Assembly: GCA_037130755.1 (NCBI GenBank) | Contig: JBAXSI010000018.1 | Location: 918-64,917 of the forward strand | DNA from: Actinomycetes bacterium | GTDB lineage: Bacteria; Actinomycetota; Actinomycetes; S36-B12 | DNA: 64,000 nt | Reading direction: 5' to 3' | Shown: positions 19,516 to 25,789 of the stretch, in pieces | Layout: each line of letters starts with the position of its first letter | How positions within the stretch are numbered: position 1 is the first letter of the stretch | Notes under the pieces: model-generated | What the model was told of the DNA's origin: nothing | Databases searched by the model: none | The model's input: only the letters and a program-made list of their open reading frames with translations | Made by a program: the position numbers and the translations under genes

Positions 19516-21149
19516 CCGGCGGCCTCGTCAGGCTCGTCGCTCGAGTCGGCCAGTGCGGCCGACACCTGGTCGACGGTCAGCCAGGTGGCGGGGGAGAGGA
19601 TCTTCGCGACCTGCGGGGCGAACATCGGCGACGACGTCACGACGTCCAGCGTCGGGCCGTCCGCGACGATCTCGCCGTCGGCCAGGATCACCACCCGATC
19701 GGCGGCCTCCGCCACAAGTTCCACGTCGTGCGTCGCAAGAACGATCGCGTGCCCGGCCTCGGCGAGGTCGACGAGCAGGCGGGCGAACTTCGCCTTCGTC
19801 GGGTAGTCAAGGCCGCGCGTGGGCTCGTCCAGGAGCAGCAGGGGCGGGCGCGCGGCGAGGATCACGCACAGCGCGAGCAGCAGACGCTGTCCCTCCGACA
19901 GGTCGCGCGGATGCGTGCCGTCCTCGATCGCCGGTGCCATCAGCGCGAGCAGGGCGCGGGCGGTCCCGGGCTCGCAACCGGCGTCGCGGTCGGCGGCGCG
20001 GCATTCGTCGGCGACCGTGGTCGCCTCCAGCAGGTCCCCGGGCTCCTGGGGCACCAGTCCCACGGCGTGGATGAGGTCCGGGCCGGTCAGGCCGCGGGGG
20101 TCGCGGCCGCCGACGCGGACCGATCCGCCCACTCGCGGGCCCAGCCCGACGATGGCGTTGAGGAGCGTGGACTTGCCGGCGCCGTTGCGGCCCATCAGCG
20201 CGACGATCTCCCCTTCACCCACCTCGGTGGAGATCGATCGAAGGGCGGGCGTCGCGCCGTAGCGAACCGAGAGCGCGTCGGTCTGCACCAGGGCGCGTCG
20301 CTTCGTCGGCACGGGACGCAGGTGCGGGGTTCGGCCCACCAGCAGGTCGCGCAACGGCCCTGCCGCCCGGCGTGCGTCGCGGACGGAGAGCGGAAGCGGC
20401 TGCCAGCCAGCGAGCCGGCCCAGCTCGACGACCGGCGGCGCGATCGGCGCGCTGTTCATGATGTCTCTGGGCACGCCGGCCCGAAGGGGCTGACCGTCGC
20501 CGGGCACGACGATGACCTGGTCGGCGTACTGCACGACGCGCTCGAGTCGGTGCTCAGACATCACGACGGTGACGCCGAGGTCGTGGACGAGTCGCTGAAG
20601 GGCGGCGAGCACCTCTTCGGCCGCTCCTGGATCAAGGGCCGACGTGGGCTCGTCGAGGACGAGGACGCGCGGGTGCGACGTCAGGACGGCACCGATGGCC
20701 ACGCGTTGGCGCTGCCCGCCTGACAACGTCGCGAGCGGCCGACTGCGCAGATCGGCCAGGCTCAGCAGGTCGAGGGTCTCCTCGACGCGTCGGCGCATCA
20801 CGTCGGGAGCAAGTCCCAGGCACTCCATCCCGTAGGCGAGCTCGTCCTCGACCGTATCCGTGACGAAGCCGCTCATCGGATCCTGCGGCACCACGCCGAC
20901 GAGGTCCGCGAGCTCGCGCGGCGGGTGCGTCGCCGTGTCGCGGCCATCGACGATGACGCGCCCGGCGAGCGTCCCGCCGGTGAAGTGCGGCACGAGGCCG
21001 TTGATCGCTCGAAGGAGTGTCGTCTTGCCGCTGCCGGTTCGTCCCACGACGAGGACGAGTTCGCCCTCGGGTATCCGCAGGTCGACGTCGACCAGCACTG
21101 GCCTGGTCTGGCCGGGATACGTGATCGTCACGTGCTCGAAGCGGATCAT
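19512..21149 (-). CDS. ECF transporter fused ATPase (EcfA-EcfA')
   Basis: Trimmed to the ATG at 21149 (MIRFEHVTITYPG...), 545 aa. Two ABC cassettes: GRTGSGKTTLL / LSGGQRQRV and GRNGAGKSTLL / LSEGQRLLL. ATGA overlap with ecfT. Confidence 0.9.
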   Translation of the reverse strand: MIRFEHVTITYPGQTRPVLVDVDLRIPEGELVLVVGRTGSGKTTLLRAINGLVPHFTGGTLAGRVIVDGRDTATHPPRELADLVGVVPQDPMSGFVTDTVEDELAYGMECLGLAPDVMRRRVEETLDLLSLADLRSRPLATLSGGQRQRVAIGAVLTSHPRVLVLDEPTSALDPGAAEEVLAALQRLVHDLGVTVVMSEHRLERVVQYADQVIVVPGDGQPLRAGVPRDIMNSAPIAPPVVELGRLAGWQPLPLSVRDARRAAGPLRDLLVGRTPHLRPVPTKRRALVQTDALSVRYGATPALRSISTEVGEGEIVALMGRNGAGKSTLLNAIVGLGPRVGGSVRVGGRDPRGLTGPDLIHAVGLVPQEPGDLLEATTVADECRAADRDAGCEPGTARALLALMAPAIEDGTHPRDLSEGQRLLLALCVILAARPPLLLLDEPTRGLDYPTKAKFARLLVDLAEAGHAIVLATHDVELVAEAADRVVILADGEIVADGPTLDVVTSSPMFAPQVAKILSPATWLTVDQVSAALADSSDEPDEAAG

Positions 21150-22264
21150 GCGGCGGCCTGCAGGGGAGTGCGGCGCTCGACGCGTGCGGCGGTGGCGCCC
21201 GCGGGCAGGGCTGGTGCGGTGAGGGCGGGCGTCGCGGCGACGATGGCGGCGACGATCGCGACAACCGGCAGGCTCGGCCAGCCCGGCGGGCTCACGGGCG
21301 CTTGCAGGCCACTCACGTCGGACCAGGCGGCGGCCGCGAGCGACGTCGCCACGAACGCGCCGGCGAGGGCGACGAGCCATTCGGGTGCGCGCCAGGGATC
21401 GGGCCGGTAGCGCGTACGGACCGAACCGCGACCCGCCAGCACGGTGCCTGCCGTGGCCGCGAGCACGCCGACGGCGAGCATCGGCAGGCCGAGCAGTGCG
21501 GGGGAGTCGGCCGAGACCAGCCCGTAGGCCCCGATCGCAGCGGCGACGAGGCCGCCGAGGAGCAGGCCGGCACTCATGCGTCGACGCGCCGTCGGTGTGT
21601 CACCGCGCCGGCCGTAGCCGCGCGAGTCCATCGCCGCCGCCAGCGTGACGCTTCGCTCGAGGGCTCCTTCGAGCACGGGCACTGCGGCGCCCGCGATTGC
21701 CGTGAGGCCGGACGTCGCCCGGCCGCGCAGGCGTCGGGTCGCGCGCAGTCGGTCGACGTCGGCGACCAGTTGCGGGGTGAAGGTGAGGGCGACGACGACG
21801 CTGACGCCCAGTTCGTACAGCGCTGCCGGCACGCTCTTGAGCAGTCGCGTCGGAGAGGCAAGCGAGTTGGCGGCGCCGATGCAGATGAGGATCGTCGCCA
21901 GTCGAAGGCCGTCGTACACCGCCGGGAGCAGCGACTCCGCGGTCACGTCGCCGCCGAGTCGCAATCCGGCGAGCCAGGTCGGCAGCGTGAGACCGGGCAG
22001 GTGCACGAGCACGGTCGGTCCGAGCGAGGTGCCGAGGACGATCTGGACGAGCACCCGCACGACCACCACGACGATGCCGAGTCGGACGAACATCGCGAAC
22101 GAGCGGGCCCATGGTGCGTCCGGTCGTCGGGCCTGCACCACCACGGCTGCTGCGCCGATGAGCAGCAGGAGGATGAGCGGGTTCGTGGTGCGACTGGCGC
22201 CGGCGGCAAGCCCGAGTGCCCAGGCCCACCACGCACCCGGATGCAGCCAGCGGGGATCACCCAT
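21146..22264 (-). CDS. ECF transporter transmembrane component (EcfT/CbiQ family)
   Basis: Trimmed to the ATG at 22264 (MGDPRWLHPGAWWAWALGL...), 372 aa and polytopic. Overlaps the upstream gene by 8 nt. Confidence 0.8.
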   Translation of the reverse strand: MGDPRWLHPGAWWAWALGLAAGASRTTNPLILLLLIGAAAVVVQARRPDAPWARSFAMFVRLGIVVVVVRVLVQIVLGTSLGPTVLVHLPGLTLPTWLAGLRLGGDVTAESLLPAVYDGLRLATILICIGAANSLASPTRLLKSVPAALYELGVSVVVALTFTPQLVADVDRLRATRRLRGRATSGLTAIAGAAVPVLEGALERSVTLAAAMDSRGYGRRGDTPTARRRMSAGLLLGGLVAAAIGAYGLVSADSPALLGLPMLAVGVLAATAGTVLAGRGSVRTRYRPDPWRAPEWLVALAGAFVATSLAAAAWSDVSGLQAPVSPPGWPSLPVVAIVAAIVAATPALTAPALPAGATAARVERRTPLQAAA

Positions 22265-22976
22265 GGTGGTCCTCCGTGGCCCGACGTCGATAGGCGATCG
22301 AGCCCAGTGCTGCCCCCACGAGCAGGACGACGGCGACGGCGATCGTCGCCCACGGGGACCCGGAGTCGACGGGAGCTGCGGGTGCCGCGGCGGTCGTTGC
22401 GTCGGCGGAGGCGACCGCCGCGGGTGACGCGGCAGTCGCCTGCGCGACCCGCTGCGCCTCAGCATCGCCGAGGATCGGCGCACACTCGCCCTTCGGGAAG
22501 CCCGCGAGGGAGCAAATGAGCCCGCCCTCGGCGTGCACCGGCGCGATCGTCTGGAGAACCGTGGCCCCGGTCGCGTCCTTGGCGACGACGACGCACTCAG
22601 TGACGAGCGCCGGAGGGATCTGTCCCTCGGGAGCGATCGTCGTCGGACCGGAGTCGATCACCAGGCCCACACGCTTCATCCCGTCGGCGGCTGCGGTGGC
22701 GCCGCAGATCGCGGCGAAGTCCGGCGCCACGCGCGGTGTGTCCTGCCCGGTACCGGCCTGCGTGGTCACGGCGAAGCGCCAACCCTCGACGGTGCCATCG
22801 GCCGGGATCGTTGTCGCAGGTCCCTGCGTGGCGAACGCCCACGAACTCCCGCTGCCCTGCCAGTACGTCCAGTAGCGGAAAGCCGCGGCGTTCGCCGAGG
22901 GCGCTACGAACAGGCCGACCGCCAGCGTGACCAGCGCCATGGCACTGGCCCGCACAACGGTCGACCTGATTCGCAC
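22257..22976 (-). CDS. secreted, C-terminally membrane-anchored protein of unknown function (I recall this family being labelled SCO2322 family)
   Basis: 239 aa with signal peptide MRIRSTVVRASAMALVTLAVGLFVAPSANA. The mature part starts AFRYWTYWQGSGSSWAF...VEGWRF. Ala-rich linker, C-terminal TM helix WATIAVAVVLLVGAALGSIAY, then RRR. Confidence 0.7.
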   Translation of the reverse strand: MRIRSTVVRASAMALVTLAVGLFVAPSANAAAFRYWTYWQGSGSSWAFATQGPATTIPADGTVEGWRFAVTTQAGTGQDTPRVAPDFAAICGATAAADGMKRVGLVIDSGPTTIAPEGQIPPALVTECVVVAKDATGATVLQTIAPVHAEGGLICSLAGFPKGECAPILGDAEAQRVAQATAASPAAVASADATTAAAPAAPVDSGSPWATIAVAVVLLVGAALGSIAYRRRATEDHHG

Positions 22977-22978
22977 TG

Positions 22979-24070
22979 CTACTTCCTGATGCTTGCGTTG
23001 AGCGACGACACGAGGTTGACGCCGCCGAAGCTGCCCGCCTTGCTGCCGGTCGCATCAGCGACGAGCAGCAATAGCCCCAGTGCGCCGGGATCGGGCCCGC
23101 CGGAGTGCGTCGTGAAGGCCGGGGCGCTCGCCTTCAGCGCCGCCGTTGCGCGGCCGACTGCAGCGCGTCCCTTGTTCGCTCCGACGAGTGCGAGCACAGC
23201 TGCCGCGGTGTTGGCGTAGTCGGGATCGCTCCCGAACGGGGATGCCAGAGTGCCCGTCGTGGCGAGGGCCTTGGCCAGGTAGGCGGACGCCTTCGCCTTC
23301 GCGGTGTTCGCGCACGGCGCCGCGACGGCGAGCTTCCTCGGACCGCTCACAGGCAGTGTCCCGTTGATGCCGACCAGGCCCTGTGCGGTAGCGGATGCGT
23401 TGACGGCTCCGCCGCTCTGGAAGGCGAAACCGCCGCTGGACGAACAGGGCGCGGACAGTGAGCCCAGGTATCTGGTGGCCTTCTTATAGGCAGCGAAGTC
23501 GAAGCTCGGGGCCATCGACAGCATCGCGGCCAGGGACAGTCCCGTCGAGTTCGCATCGGAGGCCCCGCCTGACGTCCAGGGGAAGCCGCCGTCGGAGCCC
23601 TGCTGCTTCGTCAGCCAGTCGCCGGCCTTCACGGCGGCGTCGATCGCGCGCCCGACAAGGGTCGGGCTGGCGGAGTCATGGTCCTGCAGGGCCATCAGGG
23701 CCATCAGCGCCATAGCGGTGGAGTTGGTGTCCGGGCCGGTGAAGTTCTTCGGGTCTGGGGCCTCGCACGGCTTGCTGAGGTCGGCTCGGTAGGCCTGGAA
23801 GGAGCCGCTCGCGCACTGCTGGTCGAGCAGCCACGTGATCGCCGCTGGTGCCGGCTTGGCACCGACGGCCCCAAGGCCCAGCAGCGCGAGGGACTGGCGG
23901 TACACCCCGTCGTAGGTCGGGTCGGCGGCACCGTAGAGGCCGACGGTGGCGCTGGGAGCCGCGCTGGCGGCCGGGGCGAGGGCTGTCGATGCGAATGCCG
24001 CGCTGGCGACGACGCCGATGACGGCGATGGAACTGCTGAGCCTTCGGCGAAGGCTGGACTGCTGGGTCAT
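22979..24070 (-). CDS. secreted prenyltransferase/squalene-cyclase-repeat (alpha/alpha toroid) protein
   Basis: 363 aa with signal peptide ...AFASTALAPAASAAP. Repeated Q-x-x-x-G-x-F/W type motifs (LLDQQCASGSFQ, LTKQQGSDGGFPW, SSSGGFAFQ). First gene after the riboswitch; SD aaggaag precedes the ATG. Confidence 0.75.
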   Translation of the reverse strand: MTQQSSLRRRLSSSIAVIGVVASAAFASTALAPAASAAPSATVGLYGAADPTYDGVYRQSLALLGLGAVGAKPAPAAITWLLDQQCASGSFQAYRADLSKPCEAPDPKNFTGPDTNSTAMALMALMALQDHDSASPTLVGRAIDAAVKAGDWLTKQQGSDGGFPWTSGGASDANSTGLSLAAMLSMAPSFDFAAYKKATRYLGSLSAPCSSSGGFAFQSGGAVNASATAQGLVGINGTLPVSGPRKLAVAAPCANTAKAKASAYLAKALATTGTLASPFGSDPDYANTAAAVLALVGANKGRAAVGRATAALKASAPAFTTHSGGPDPGALGLLLLVADATGSKAGSFGGVNLVSSLNASIRK

Positions 24071-24119: not shown

Positions 24120-24305
24120 GACCAAAACCCCTATTGCTGAACGCAACAGGGGACGGTCGGGTGGTGACCCGAGCTCCCGTCCCGTTACCTCGACGGATGG
24201 AGCCGCTCGCGTTCGCCAGGTGCTCCGACTCACCCCACACGGGGGAACACGGTTGCGGGACAGCGCCGGGATCGCACCGGACTTCCCCTGGACGTCGAAC
24301 GAGTG
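24120..24305 (-). promoter_or_regulatory. cobalamin (B12) riboswitch
   Basis: The minus strand contains the conserved core GGGGAAGUCCGGUGCGAUCCCGGCGCUGUCCCGCAACCGUG (plus coordinates 24247..24287) and the B12 box GAGUCGGAGCACCUGG (24215..24230). It is closed by cguucg/cgaacg and ccagg/ccugg helices (24209..24300). Confidence 0.85.
24123..24151 (-). terminator. weak candidate attenuator hairpin in the riboswitch expression platform
   Basis: The minus strand reads cccct-gttgcgttcagcaat-agggg-tttt. Its 5' arm overlaps the 3' arm of a stronger 7-bp hairpin (gggacgg...ccgtccc, 24149..24182), giving mutually exclusive folds. The stem is only 5 bp. Confidence 0.3.
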
Positions 24306-24409
24306 GATTCAGTTGTGGTGCGATCCGACCATGCAGCGACCCCCGGTGTCAAAGAATGCGAGCCCGCCTTTCCCCAACGCAGGCCAGGTGACACGGAGAT
24401 ACTCCGAGG

Positions 24410-25789
24410 ATGAGCTTTCGCCCTGAGGCATACGACGGCCCGCTGGATCGCGCCAGCATCCACGCCCGCTCCTGGCTGGCGGGCCTTCCGGACCGCCGCA
24501 TCCCACCGGTCGGCGACGTCGATTCGATCGCCGCGGAACTGGGTGGGCCACTGCCGGAGGGCTCCACCGATCCCGCGGCGGTGGTCGACCTGCTTGCCCG
24601 GCATGTCGAGCCGGGGCTCATGTCCATGGGTTCGGGACGATTCTTCGGCTGGGTGATCGGTGGTGCGCTCCCGGCGGCTCTAGGGGCCGACTGGCTGGTC
24701 AGCGCCTGGGACCAGAACGCTGCGATCCGCTTCGCGACGCCGGGCGTCATCGGGGCCGAGCAGGCAGCGGCCGCCTGGCTCCTGGACCTCATGTCCCTGC
24801 CGTCCGGCGCGCAGGTGTCCTTCGTGACGGGCGGAACGACCGCCAACTTCGCCGGCTTGGCCGCCGGCCGACAGCGGGTGCTCGAGTCCGCTGGCTGGGA
24901 TCTCGACAGCGATGGGCTGGCCGGCTCCCCGCGCGTCACCGTGATCGTGGGCGCTGATCGGCACAGCTCCGTCGACATCGCGCTGCGCTACCTCGGACTC
25001 GGCGCTCCCACGCCGGTCGACGCCGACGACCAAGGGCGGATCCGACCTGAGGCCCTCGTCGCCGCACTGGAGCGCATCGACGGTCCGCTCATCGTCGCGC
25101 TGCAGGCGGGCAACCTGCACTCGGGTGCCTTTGACGCCGTCGGTGAGTGCGCCGACCTGGTGCACGATCGCGGGGGATGGGTGCACGTCGACGGCGCGTT
25201 CGGGCTCTGGGCGGCGGCCTCGCCGCGGCTGCGCGAACTCGTGCCCGGACTTGAGCGAGCCGACTCGTGGGCTACCGATGCCCACAAGTCCCTGAACACC
25301 CCCTACGACTGCGGGATCGCCATCGTTCGCGATCCCGCGGCGCTGCGGTCGGCCTTCGGGTTCAGGGCTGCCTACCTCGTCCAGTCCGAGGGTCCGGCCG
25401 ACCCCTTCGAGACGGTCCCTGAGTTCTCGCGCCGCGCCCGGGGCGTGCCCGTCTGGGCCGCCCTGCGATCGCTCGGGCGGGCCGGCGTCGCCGACCTCAT
25501 CGAAGGGTTCGTCGCCAACGCCCAGGCGATCGCGGCCGGCATCGCCGAGATCCCCGGCGCGCGGATCCTCAACGATGTCGTCTTCTCGCAGGTGTCGGTC
25601 GCTTTCGAAAGCGACGAGCGGACCCGCCTCGTCACCCAACGACTGCTGGCCGATGGCGTGACGTGGATGTCAGGGTCGAGGTGGCGGGGTCACGACGTCA
25701 TGAGGGTGTCGGTGAGCAACTGGTCGACCGATGCTCGCGACGTCCAGATGAGCATCGAGGCCGTCCGGCGTGCGGCGGGCACGGCCTAG
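24410..25789 (+). CDS. PLP-dependent decarboxylase (group II, aspartate aminotransferase fold)
   Basis: 459 aa with the PLP-lysine motif SWATDAHKSLNTPYDCG and FVTGGTTANF. Confidence 0.8.
   Translation: MSFRPEAYDGPLDRASIHARSWLAGLPDRRIPPVGDVDSIAAELGGPLPEGSTDPAAVVDLLARHVEPGLMSMGSGRFFGWVIGGALPAALGADWLVSAWDQNAAIRFATPGVIGAEQAAAAWLLDLMSLPSGAQVSFVTGGTTANFAGLAAGRQRVLESAGWDLDSDGLAGSPRVTVIVGADRHSSVDIALRYLGLGAPTPVDADDQGRIRPEALVAALERIDGPLIVALQAGNLHSGAFDAVGECADLVHDRGGWVHVDGAFGLWAAASPRLRELVPGLERADSWATDAHKSLNTPYDCGIAIVRDPAALRSAFGFRAAYLVQSEGPADPFETVPEFSRRARGVPVWAALRSLGRAGVADLIEGFVANAQAIAAGIAEIPGARILNDVVFSQVSVAFESDERTRLVTQRLLADGVTWMSGSRWRGHDVMRVSVSNWSTDARDVQMSIEAVRRAAGTA

Follow-up and report, generated by a model that had tools for sequence, protein, structure and literature searches.

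A B12 riboswitch-controlled actinobacterial operon encodes a dedicated ECF importer, likely for corrinoids, and two exported accessory proteins

Transporters of the energy-coupling factor (ECF) type are usually described, and in fact defined, as lacking extracytoplasmic solute-binding proteins. Here we analyzed an operon which combines such a transporter with two exported accessory proteins behind a B12 riboswitch and which is located in a 64,000-nucleotide stretch from an Actinomycetes bacterium (lineage S36-B12; assembly GCA_037130755.1, contig JBAXSI010000018.1), hereafter referred to as the window, an actinobacterial chromosome segment with a G+C content of 69%. The first accessory protein is an alpha/alpha-toroid protein of 363 amino acids (aa) that resembles SCO2321, the second a member of the SCO2322 family with 239 aa. 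The interpretation we favor, with slightly better than even confidence, is that the operon is repressed by B12 and encodes a dedicated (group I) ECF importer, likely of corrinoids, whose two extracytoplasmic accessory proteins probably serve in corrinoid capture. The only characterized ECF-type B12 importer, ECF-CbrT of Lactobacillus delbrueckii, carries cobalamin and cobinamide, and its gene cluster is nrdJ-cbrS-cbrT-pduO (PMC5997447). Within this cluster, CbrS appears to be a DUF4430 lipoprotein. ECF-CbrT is comparable to the system described here in being an ECF-type importer linked to the use of B12, but it belongs to group II and depends on a shared ECF module, whereas the actinobacterial operon encodes a dedicated group I transporter under riboswitch control.

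Other described relatives by arrangement carry beta-grasp proteins. Burroughs et al. (2007) recognized the beta domain of transcobalamin as a beta-grasp (SLBB) domain and reported bacterial versions, some of them fused to a toroid, in CbiO/CbiQ-like operons of organisms without B12 synthesis, for which a role as B12 scavengers was proposed (PMC1796856). One Firmicute locus of this kind (L081) was part of our analysis; there, a Cobalamin riboswitch is followed by genes for three DUF4430 proteins, two of them large and the third of 146 aa, and then for CbiQ and an ABC-ABC-S fusion protein. The operon in the window shares with Firmicute DUF4430 operons the layout of riboswitch, exported accessory protein(s), EcfT, EcfA-A' and S component, and with these and the Burroughs systems the predicted scavenging of B12 or its precursors as well as the toroid domain present in some members. 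The small actinobacterial protein, however, belongs to the SCO2322 family (PF28005), which has no detectable relation to DUF4430 in sequence or fold, and it is anchored by a C-terminal transmembrane (TM) helix instead of the lipid or sortase anchor of the Firmicute systems. Unlike in the toroid-SLBB proteins, the toroid is a separate polypeptide here and often absent. Since DUF4430 proteins occupy these positions within the same layout at L081, we regard the analogy as positional and functional, not as homologous. Transcobalamin, intrinsic factor and haptocorrin likewise are exported, contain an alpha/alpha-toroid module along with a small beta module, and function in a B12 context; in the actinobacterial system, by contrast, the modules are two chains, neither of which matches Cobalamin_bind or DUF4430, and the beta protein also occurs without the toroid.

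The five genes from the toroid gene to the S component gene are joined by junctions of +2, -8, -4 and -4 nucleotides (nt): the toroid open reading frame (ORF) and the 239-aa ORF are spaced by 2 nt (TAG-CA-GTG), the stop of the SCO2322 gene and the start of ecfT overlap by 8 nt (ATGGGTGA), and ATGA overlaps are found both between ecfT and ecfA and between ecfA and ecfS. From this we conclude that the genes represent one translationally coupled unit. The aptamer for adenosylcobalamin (AdoCbl) upstream of the first gene exceeded the Rfam gathering score (Table 1), and a terminator-like hairpin is placed between this aptamer and the start codon, which suggests transcriptional rather than translational control; the hairpin is a probable transcriptional OFF expression platform. 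A ribosome-binding site (AAGGAAG) is located 7 nt upstream of the ATG at 24070. As expected for a group I ECF transporter, the genes for EcfT, for both ATPase domains and for the S component are joined in one unit. The match of EcfT to Pfam CbiQ is borderline (24.8 bits, cutoff 25, E 2e-05), the fused EcfA-A' protein also matches ECF_ATPase_1 and ECF_ATPase_2, and the S component matches PF12822 with 38.3 bits (cutoff 30.7), as do 11 of the 16 members of its family.

This arrangement is conserved across genomes. Relatives were collected with one peptide pattern, which matched 353 species genomes, and 80 loci were taken for context analysis, for which counts were derived from ORF-level hidden Markov model (HMM) searches and from a covariance model built on nine aptamers and cross-checked with Rfam on ten loci. 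Of 77 evaluable loci, 74 have ecfT-ecfA-ecfS downstream of SCO2322, and the custom covariance model places a B12 riboswitch directly ahead of the operon in at least 73 of 75. Rfam gathering scores were reached in eight of the ten related loci. Together with the aptamer of the window, these matches assign the operon to a cobalamin riboswitch regulon. The toroid gene is found immediately 5' of the SCO2322 gene in 46 loci; 33 of 79 have no such gene within 7 kb, including those of Terrabacter, Pedococcus, Marmoricola, Kribbella and Actinoallomurus, where the riboswitch abuts the SCO2322 gene. Clustering of the neighbouring ORFs in the toroid-less loci revealed no replacement accessory gene, only housekeeping synteny (DUF3043, aldo/keto reductase, beta-lactamase-like, gcvT). 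The SCO2322 protein is best read as the core, constant partner of the transporter and the toroid as optional. Three loci (L028, L036, L052), and probably also L045, combine riboswitch, toroid and SCO2322 genes without nearby ECF genes. A cobT or cobT-like gene is present within 7 kb in 33 of the 80 loci; at L036, asd and cobU-cobT-cobS come after the toroid-SCO2322 pair, and L068 has cobS nearby. Such neighbouring genes and the stand-alone loci link the system to corrinoid metabolism. Streptomycetales, Kitasatospora among them, carry the SCO2322 operon as well.

The 239-aa protein clearly belongs to the NCBIfam family SCO2322_fam (NF040672), with a score of 158 bits against a cutoff of 85 and a match that covers model positions 1-140 of 144. 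This family comprises 1451 clusters at 50% identity. Pfam PF28005 is precomputed on homologues of the protein; in our Pfam scan of 33 family members, no Pfam family was matched. A signal peptide is followed by a beta-rich domain of about 140 aa, an Ala/Pro low-complexity linker, and a C-terminal helix ending in RRR. In the family alignment R34, W36, W46, four Cys and other residues are invariant and no His is conserved, and conservation concerns the ectodomain, not the TM helix. AlphaFold2 predicted the protein with a predicted local distance difference test (pLDDT) score of 85 overall and mostly above 90 at residues 31-160 (lowest 10-residue block 81), for which the model contains seven strands and two short helices in the order of three strands, helix, two strands, helix and two strands; residues 209-236 are modelled as a helix. 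Foldseek comparison of this model with the PDB returned nothing with E < 1, transcobalamin chains were absent even when E was allowed up to 10, and a family profile search of the PDB gave nothing meaningful. Four positions, W39, A54, A115 and P116, are conserved to 91-100% only in toroid-containing operons. As evidence for an interface with the toroid this pattern is suggestive, but we did not count it, since it is too strongly confounded by phylogeny. A literature search for SCO2321-SCO2325 and their families found no paper on function, the only match being an unrelated peptide paper.

In the C-terminal part of the 239-aa protein, a [ST]-P-[WV]-A-T motif is conserved right before the C-terminal helix and RRR (window 22257-22400, minus strand). 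The source databases label some few homologues as LPXTG or MYXO-CTERM proteins, and five weak Gram_pos_anchor matches were obtained (best E 0.16). The C terminus could be a sorting signal instead of a plain membrane anchor.

The N terminus of the toroid protein is signal-like as well, with an RRR motif, a hydrophobic core and then ASA-AP, and it has no lipobox Cys. Against NCBIfam SCO2321_fam (NF053823) the protein scored only 222 bits (cutoff 300) over model positions 9-353 of 405, and the C-terminal membrane segment of the model has no counterpart in it; it is therefore not a member of this curated family of SCO2321 membrane proteins but, by its sequence, a clear homologue of SCO2321 of an anchor-less subtype. 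In our sample, the C-terminal anchor is limited to the toroids of Streptomycetales and is missing from the other 39, including that of the window, all of which terminate where the toroid domain does. The anchored form was seen at L031, L035, L038, L039, L053, L055 and L079 (Kitasatospora, Actinacidiphila) as a tail of 54-61 aa that includes a TM helix and has a basic terminus.

Matches of the single toroid sequence to the prenyltransferase and squalene-cyclase repeats of Pfam were all under the gathering scores, whereas a profile of 35 homologues matched squalene-hopene cyclase in the PDB at E 1.8e-15. The AlphaFold2 model is all-helical with 12 helices (pLDDT 88.7, predicted TM score 0.86), and Foldseek assigned it with a probability of 1.0 to the toroids of terpene cyclases and thioester domains; the best match was drimenyl-diphosphate synthase (E 4e-07), followed by squalene-hopene cyclase and the thioester domains of complement and alpha2-macroglobulin. 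From these models we conclude that the predicted toroid fold is real, yet generic. With class II terpene cyclases and thioester domains, its best profile and fold matches, the protein shares QW-like repeats; it differs from them in consisting of just one exported domain, in which Cys pairs are conserved, and its sequence contains neither the DxDD motif nor a CGEQ-type thioester motif. The missing DxDD motif and the signal peptide set it apart from the class II terpene cyclases and prenyltransferases. Four Cys, but no His, are conserved in the toroid family; together with the signal peptide, the invariant Cys point to export. Because the catalytic motifs are absent and the four Cys invariant, binding is a more fitting extracellular role for the protein than catalysis, and an extracellular cyclase enzyme is implausible.

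The first-pass annotation of this locus had proposed, as a hypothesis, that the two proteins could be a split, transcobalamin-like pair that hands corrinoids to the S component and in which the toroid takes the place of the alpha domain and the 239-aa protein that of the DUF4430 beta domain. Its description of the locus was accurate: both ORFs were recovered at their given positions and spacing, the quoted motifs (LLDQQCASGSFQ, KQQGSDGGFPW, AFRYWTYWQGSGSSWAF and VEGWRF) are all present, the first gene is preceded by the riboswitch, both proteins have signal-peptide-like N termini, the first is predicted as an alpha/alpha toroid, and the second as a beta-rich protein with a C-terminal hydrophobic helix. 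Homology to transcobalamin, however, was not supported. As a positive control we used the human TCN2 sequence, identical to PDB 7qbf_A, which in the same Pfam library matched Cobalamin_bind (PF01122) at 3.7e-114 and DUF4430 at 2.7e-05, whereas DUF4430 (PF14478) had no match at E up to 10 in the 33 SCO2322-family members. With hhalign, the SCO2322 alignment reached a probability of 0.9% against the TCN2 beta domain and of 0.1% against an alignment of 30 bacterial DUF4430 proteins, taken from a collected set all annotated PF14478; the latter, used as a control, did recognize the beta domain of TCN2 (E 3.7e-04, 76 columns). Isolated beta domains of transcobalamin (5no0) are included in the PDB searched by Foldseek. 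A short resemblance recurred in hhalign between PADGxVEGWRF and KDGDxIEWxY or KDGETIELRL. Because PADGxVEGWRF resembles KDGDxIEWxY and DATGYxVL resembles EGETVFDVL, we also considered SCO2322 as a circularly permuted DUF4430, but discarded this possibility, as the permuted alignment gave the same 22-column match of 0.15%.

The toroid showed no particular affinity to the transcobalamin alpha domain either. Cobalamin_bind had no match in it at E up to 1, its family profile found cyclases but no transcobalamin chain in the PDB at E up to 10, hhalign with the human TCN2 alpha domain gave a probability of 1.4%, and transcobalamin was absent from the 50 Foldseek matches listed. The pair thus includes an alpha6/alpha6 toroid as in the large domain of transcobalamin, but not the DUF4430/SLBB beta-grasp domain; the toroid resembles one half of the animal B12 carrier in general fold only, and a specific kinship of either protein to eukaryotic B12 carriers is not supported. 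The proposal is thus partly supported, by the conserved B12 context, the export of both proteins, the toroid fold, the Firmicute locus and the prediction of Burroughs et al.; homology and, in view of the 33 toroid-less loci, obligatory pairing are not supported.

For the S component, searches of the PDB with the single sequence and with a 16-member profile gave nothing at E up to 10, and hence no solved S component. The CbrT structure, which we take to be PDB 6FNP, should presumably be included there. We therefore rejected a sequence similarity of the S component to CbrT or any other solved S component; as S components diverge fast, the missing match is still compatible with the same substrate as CbrT. 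Only PF12822 and ECF-ribofla_trS were matched by the S component, which has no match to CbiM/NikM and no CbiM-like histidine start at its N terminus, and the accessory proteins match no CbiN/NikN or other Pfam family, so the system does not fit the CbiMNQO/NikMNQO type. Given the vitamin-type S component, the nearby nucleotide-loop genes and the analogy with the DUF4430 operons, we consider it likely that the substrate is a corrinoid (cobalamin and/or cobinamide). In the S-component family, a motif AHSxDAPW is strongly conserved at residues ~40-52, after the first hydrophobic helix; this segment is probably extracytoplasmic loop 1, and its His and Asp could contact the substrate. The truncated CobT-like ORF downstream of ecfS corresponds to model positions 149-328 of 350, the C-terminal half of cobT, with a score of 75 bits (cutoff 306). 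The ORF keeps its place in the closest loci (L001, L002, L004, L006, L009), which argues against a one-off pseudogene, and it may be the last gene of the operon unit.

According to the interpretation we favor, plentiful AdoCbl would bind the aptamer, which then would favor the downstream terminator and switch the operon off, while under B12 scarcity the five translationally coupled genes would be made. The signal peptides, the invariant Cys quartets and the lack of conserved His in both proteins suggest that they act outside the cell. The disulfide-bonded, Trp-rich beta domain of the SCO2322 protein would extend on its flexible Ala/Pro linker from the C-terminal membrane helix, capture corrinoid near the membrane and either pass it to the S component or prime the latter. 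The toroid would be an optional second binder which widens or sharpens capture. Whether the accessory proteins bind corrinoids directly we rate as roughly an even chance; a contact between the two proteins is conjectural. Lacking a membrane anchor, the toroid of window-type operons may depend on the tethered SCO2322 protein to stay at the surface, a speculative retention to which the conservation pattern of W39, A54, A115 and P116 lends weak support.

Several observations weigh against this interpretation. Cobalt transporters and lower-ligand salvage, too, can be under the control of B12 riboswitches, and relatives of the Streptomycetales carrying the operon include B12 producers. Neither accessory protein has specific homology to a known corrinoid binder, and no genuine toroid-SCO2322 fusion was found among the best 150 of 1451 representatives. 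The S component is unlike CbrT and other solved S components, so that its substrate is assigned from context. ECF-CbrT works without an accessory protein in E. coli and in liposomes (PMC5997447), and accessory proteins are therefore not intrinsically required for ECF-type B12 transport.

As an alternative, the transporter could carry a non-corrinoid substrate under B12 control, such as cobalt, dimethylbenzimidazole or alpha-ribazole, with accessory proteins that would act like CbiN/NikK/NikL-type loaders. EcfT is of the CbiQ type, cobalt ECF systems occur under B12 riboswitches (e.g. cbiMNQO in C. difficile), the gene directly after ecfS resembles CobT, which is related to lower-ligand activation, and the operon is found in Streptomycetales; moreover, extra extracytoplasmic components of Ni/Co ECF systems were reportedly described by Rodionov et al. 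in 2006. We nevertheless consider such a substrate unlikely, since the S component is of the general vitamin type and has neither a CbiM/NikM match nor the histidine start, neither accessory protein has conserved His or Met fit for metal binding, and a toroid cavity of ~330 residues along with a Trp-rich domain would be better matched to a large planar ligand than to an ion. Still less probable, in our estimate, is that SCO2322 is a structural or gating subunit without a binding function, whose TM helix docks on the S or T component to stabilize or open it, while the toroid has an unrelated envelope role and is merely co-transcribed. With CbiN, there is a precedent for a small ECF subunit that does not itself transport, the SCO2322 protein has a single C-terminal TM helix, and its gene is coupled to ecfT by the 8-nt overlap and present in every operon of the transporter family. 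But three or four loci keep SCO2322 and toroid behind the riboswitch in the absence of nearby ECF genes, it is the ectodomain and not the TM helix that is conserved, and the linker of ~40 residues argues for a mobile ligand-capturing domain rather than a fixed subunit.

A strict split-transcobalamin homologue, in which a single cobalamin would be enclosed by the alpha6/alpha6 barrel of the toroid on one side and by SCO2322 as a DUF4430-type beta domain on the other, appears comparably improbable. It would agree with the confirmed toroid fold, the adjacency of the two genes and the three loci that keep only this pair behind a riboswitch; anchor-less toroids would need a tethered partner, the four SCO2322 positions are conserved where a toroid is present, and the hhalign motif resemblance could be read in its favor. 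These points are opposed by the tests for DUF4430, including circular permutation, which were all negative with positive controls, by a confident SCO2322 model without a Foldseek match to transcobalamin or any other beta-grasp protein, and by a toroid that is nearer to terpene cyclases and thioester domains. The toroid is also missing from many loci, and the group-specific positions are confounded by phylogeny. A different possibility, which we regard as unlikely, is that the SCO2322 domain is a new corrinoid-binding fold that replaces DUF4430 in actinobacterial ECF B12 importers. In loci with a toroid gene, the two chains would then together make up a convergent counterpart of transcobalamin, kept at the cell surface by the anchor of SCO2322. 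If true, this would be a dedicated extracytoplasmic capture module for a transporter class defined by the lack of solute-binding proteins.

B12-regulated ECF importers with extracytoplasmic helpers are already known; here, the constant partner is an uncharacterized and apparently unrelated beta-domain family. For a whole family of actinobacterial ECF transporters, the pairing with a tethered surface protein is invariable, and a secreted toroid is often added to it, all under B12 control. This family is large and extends over abundant freshwater lineages (Nanopelagicales) and the soil genera Terrabacter, Kribbella and Kitasatospora, that is, settings in which the exchange of B12 and its precursors shapes communities. 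SCO2321/SCO2322-type proteins could define a new class of corrinoid capture in Gram-positive high-GC bacteria.

Table 1 Features of the B12 riboswitch-controlled operon, given as positions in the window and listed in the direction of transcription.
Feature	Position	Strand	Remarks
AdoCbl (B12) riboswitch aptamer	24169..24314	-	Rfam RF01482, 54.9 bits (gathering score 50), E 2.5e-07, full-length model match
Terminator-like hairpin, then TTTTGG	24128..24152	-	10-pair stem (6 G-C pairs) and T-run; probable OFF expression platform
Exported alpha/alpha-toroid protein, 363 aa	22979..24070	-	SCO2321-like, without C-terminal anchor
SCO2322-family protein, 239 aa	22257..22976	-	Signal peptide, beta-rich domain, linker, C-terminal TM helix
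EcfT (CbiQ-type) transmembrane component, 372 aa	21146..22264	-	ATG at 22264; Pfam CbiQ, E 2e-05
Fused EcfA-A' ATPase, 545 aa	19512..21149	-	ATG at 21149; two ABC_tran domains, E 1.1e-53
Dedicated ECF S component, 269 aa	18706..19515	-	Pfam ECF_trnsprt PF12822
Truncated CobT-like ORF, 251 aa	17862..18617	-	NCBIfam cobT, partial match; 88 nt downstream of ecfS

Two database entries can be mistaken for domain fusions. P0331 (730 aa), the only candidate among the best 150 representatives, was considered as a toroid-SCO2322 fusion and rejected, as its internal signal peptide and Arg-rich junction indicate that it is probably a frameshift or gene-call artefact; P0033 is an apparent gene-call fusion of SCO2322 with the start of EcfT. 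On the opposite strand, about 100 nt past the riboswitch, starts a divergent gene for a pyridoxal phosphate-dependent decarboxylase-like protein of 459 aa (24410-25789, plus strand), which has weak matches to diaminobutyrate and aspartate decarboxylase models and no evident operon link. The wider neighbourhood of the operon (window ~11000-32000) is shared with the distant actinobacterial loci L022, L028, L036, L043, L045, L052 and L062, where the operon lies between a group of DUF3043, aldo/keto reductase, PspA-like and HtpX-like genes and a second group made up of gcvT, pepA, lpdA and sucB. Its conservation in distant actinobacteria suggests old vertical inheritance.

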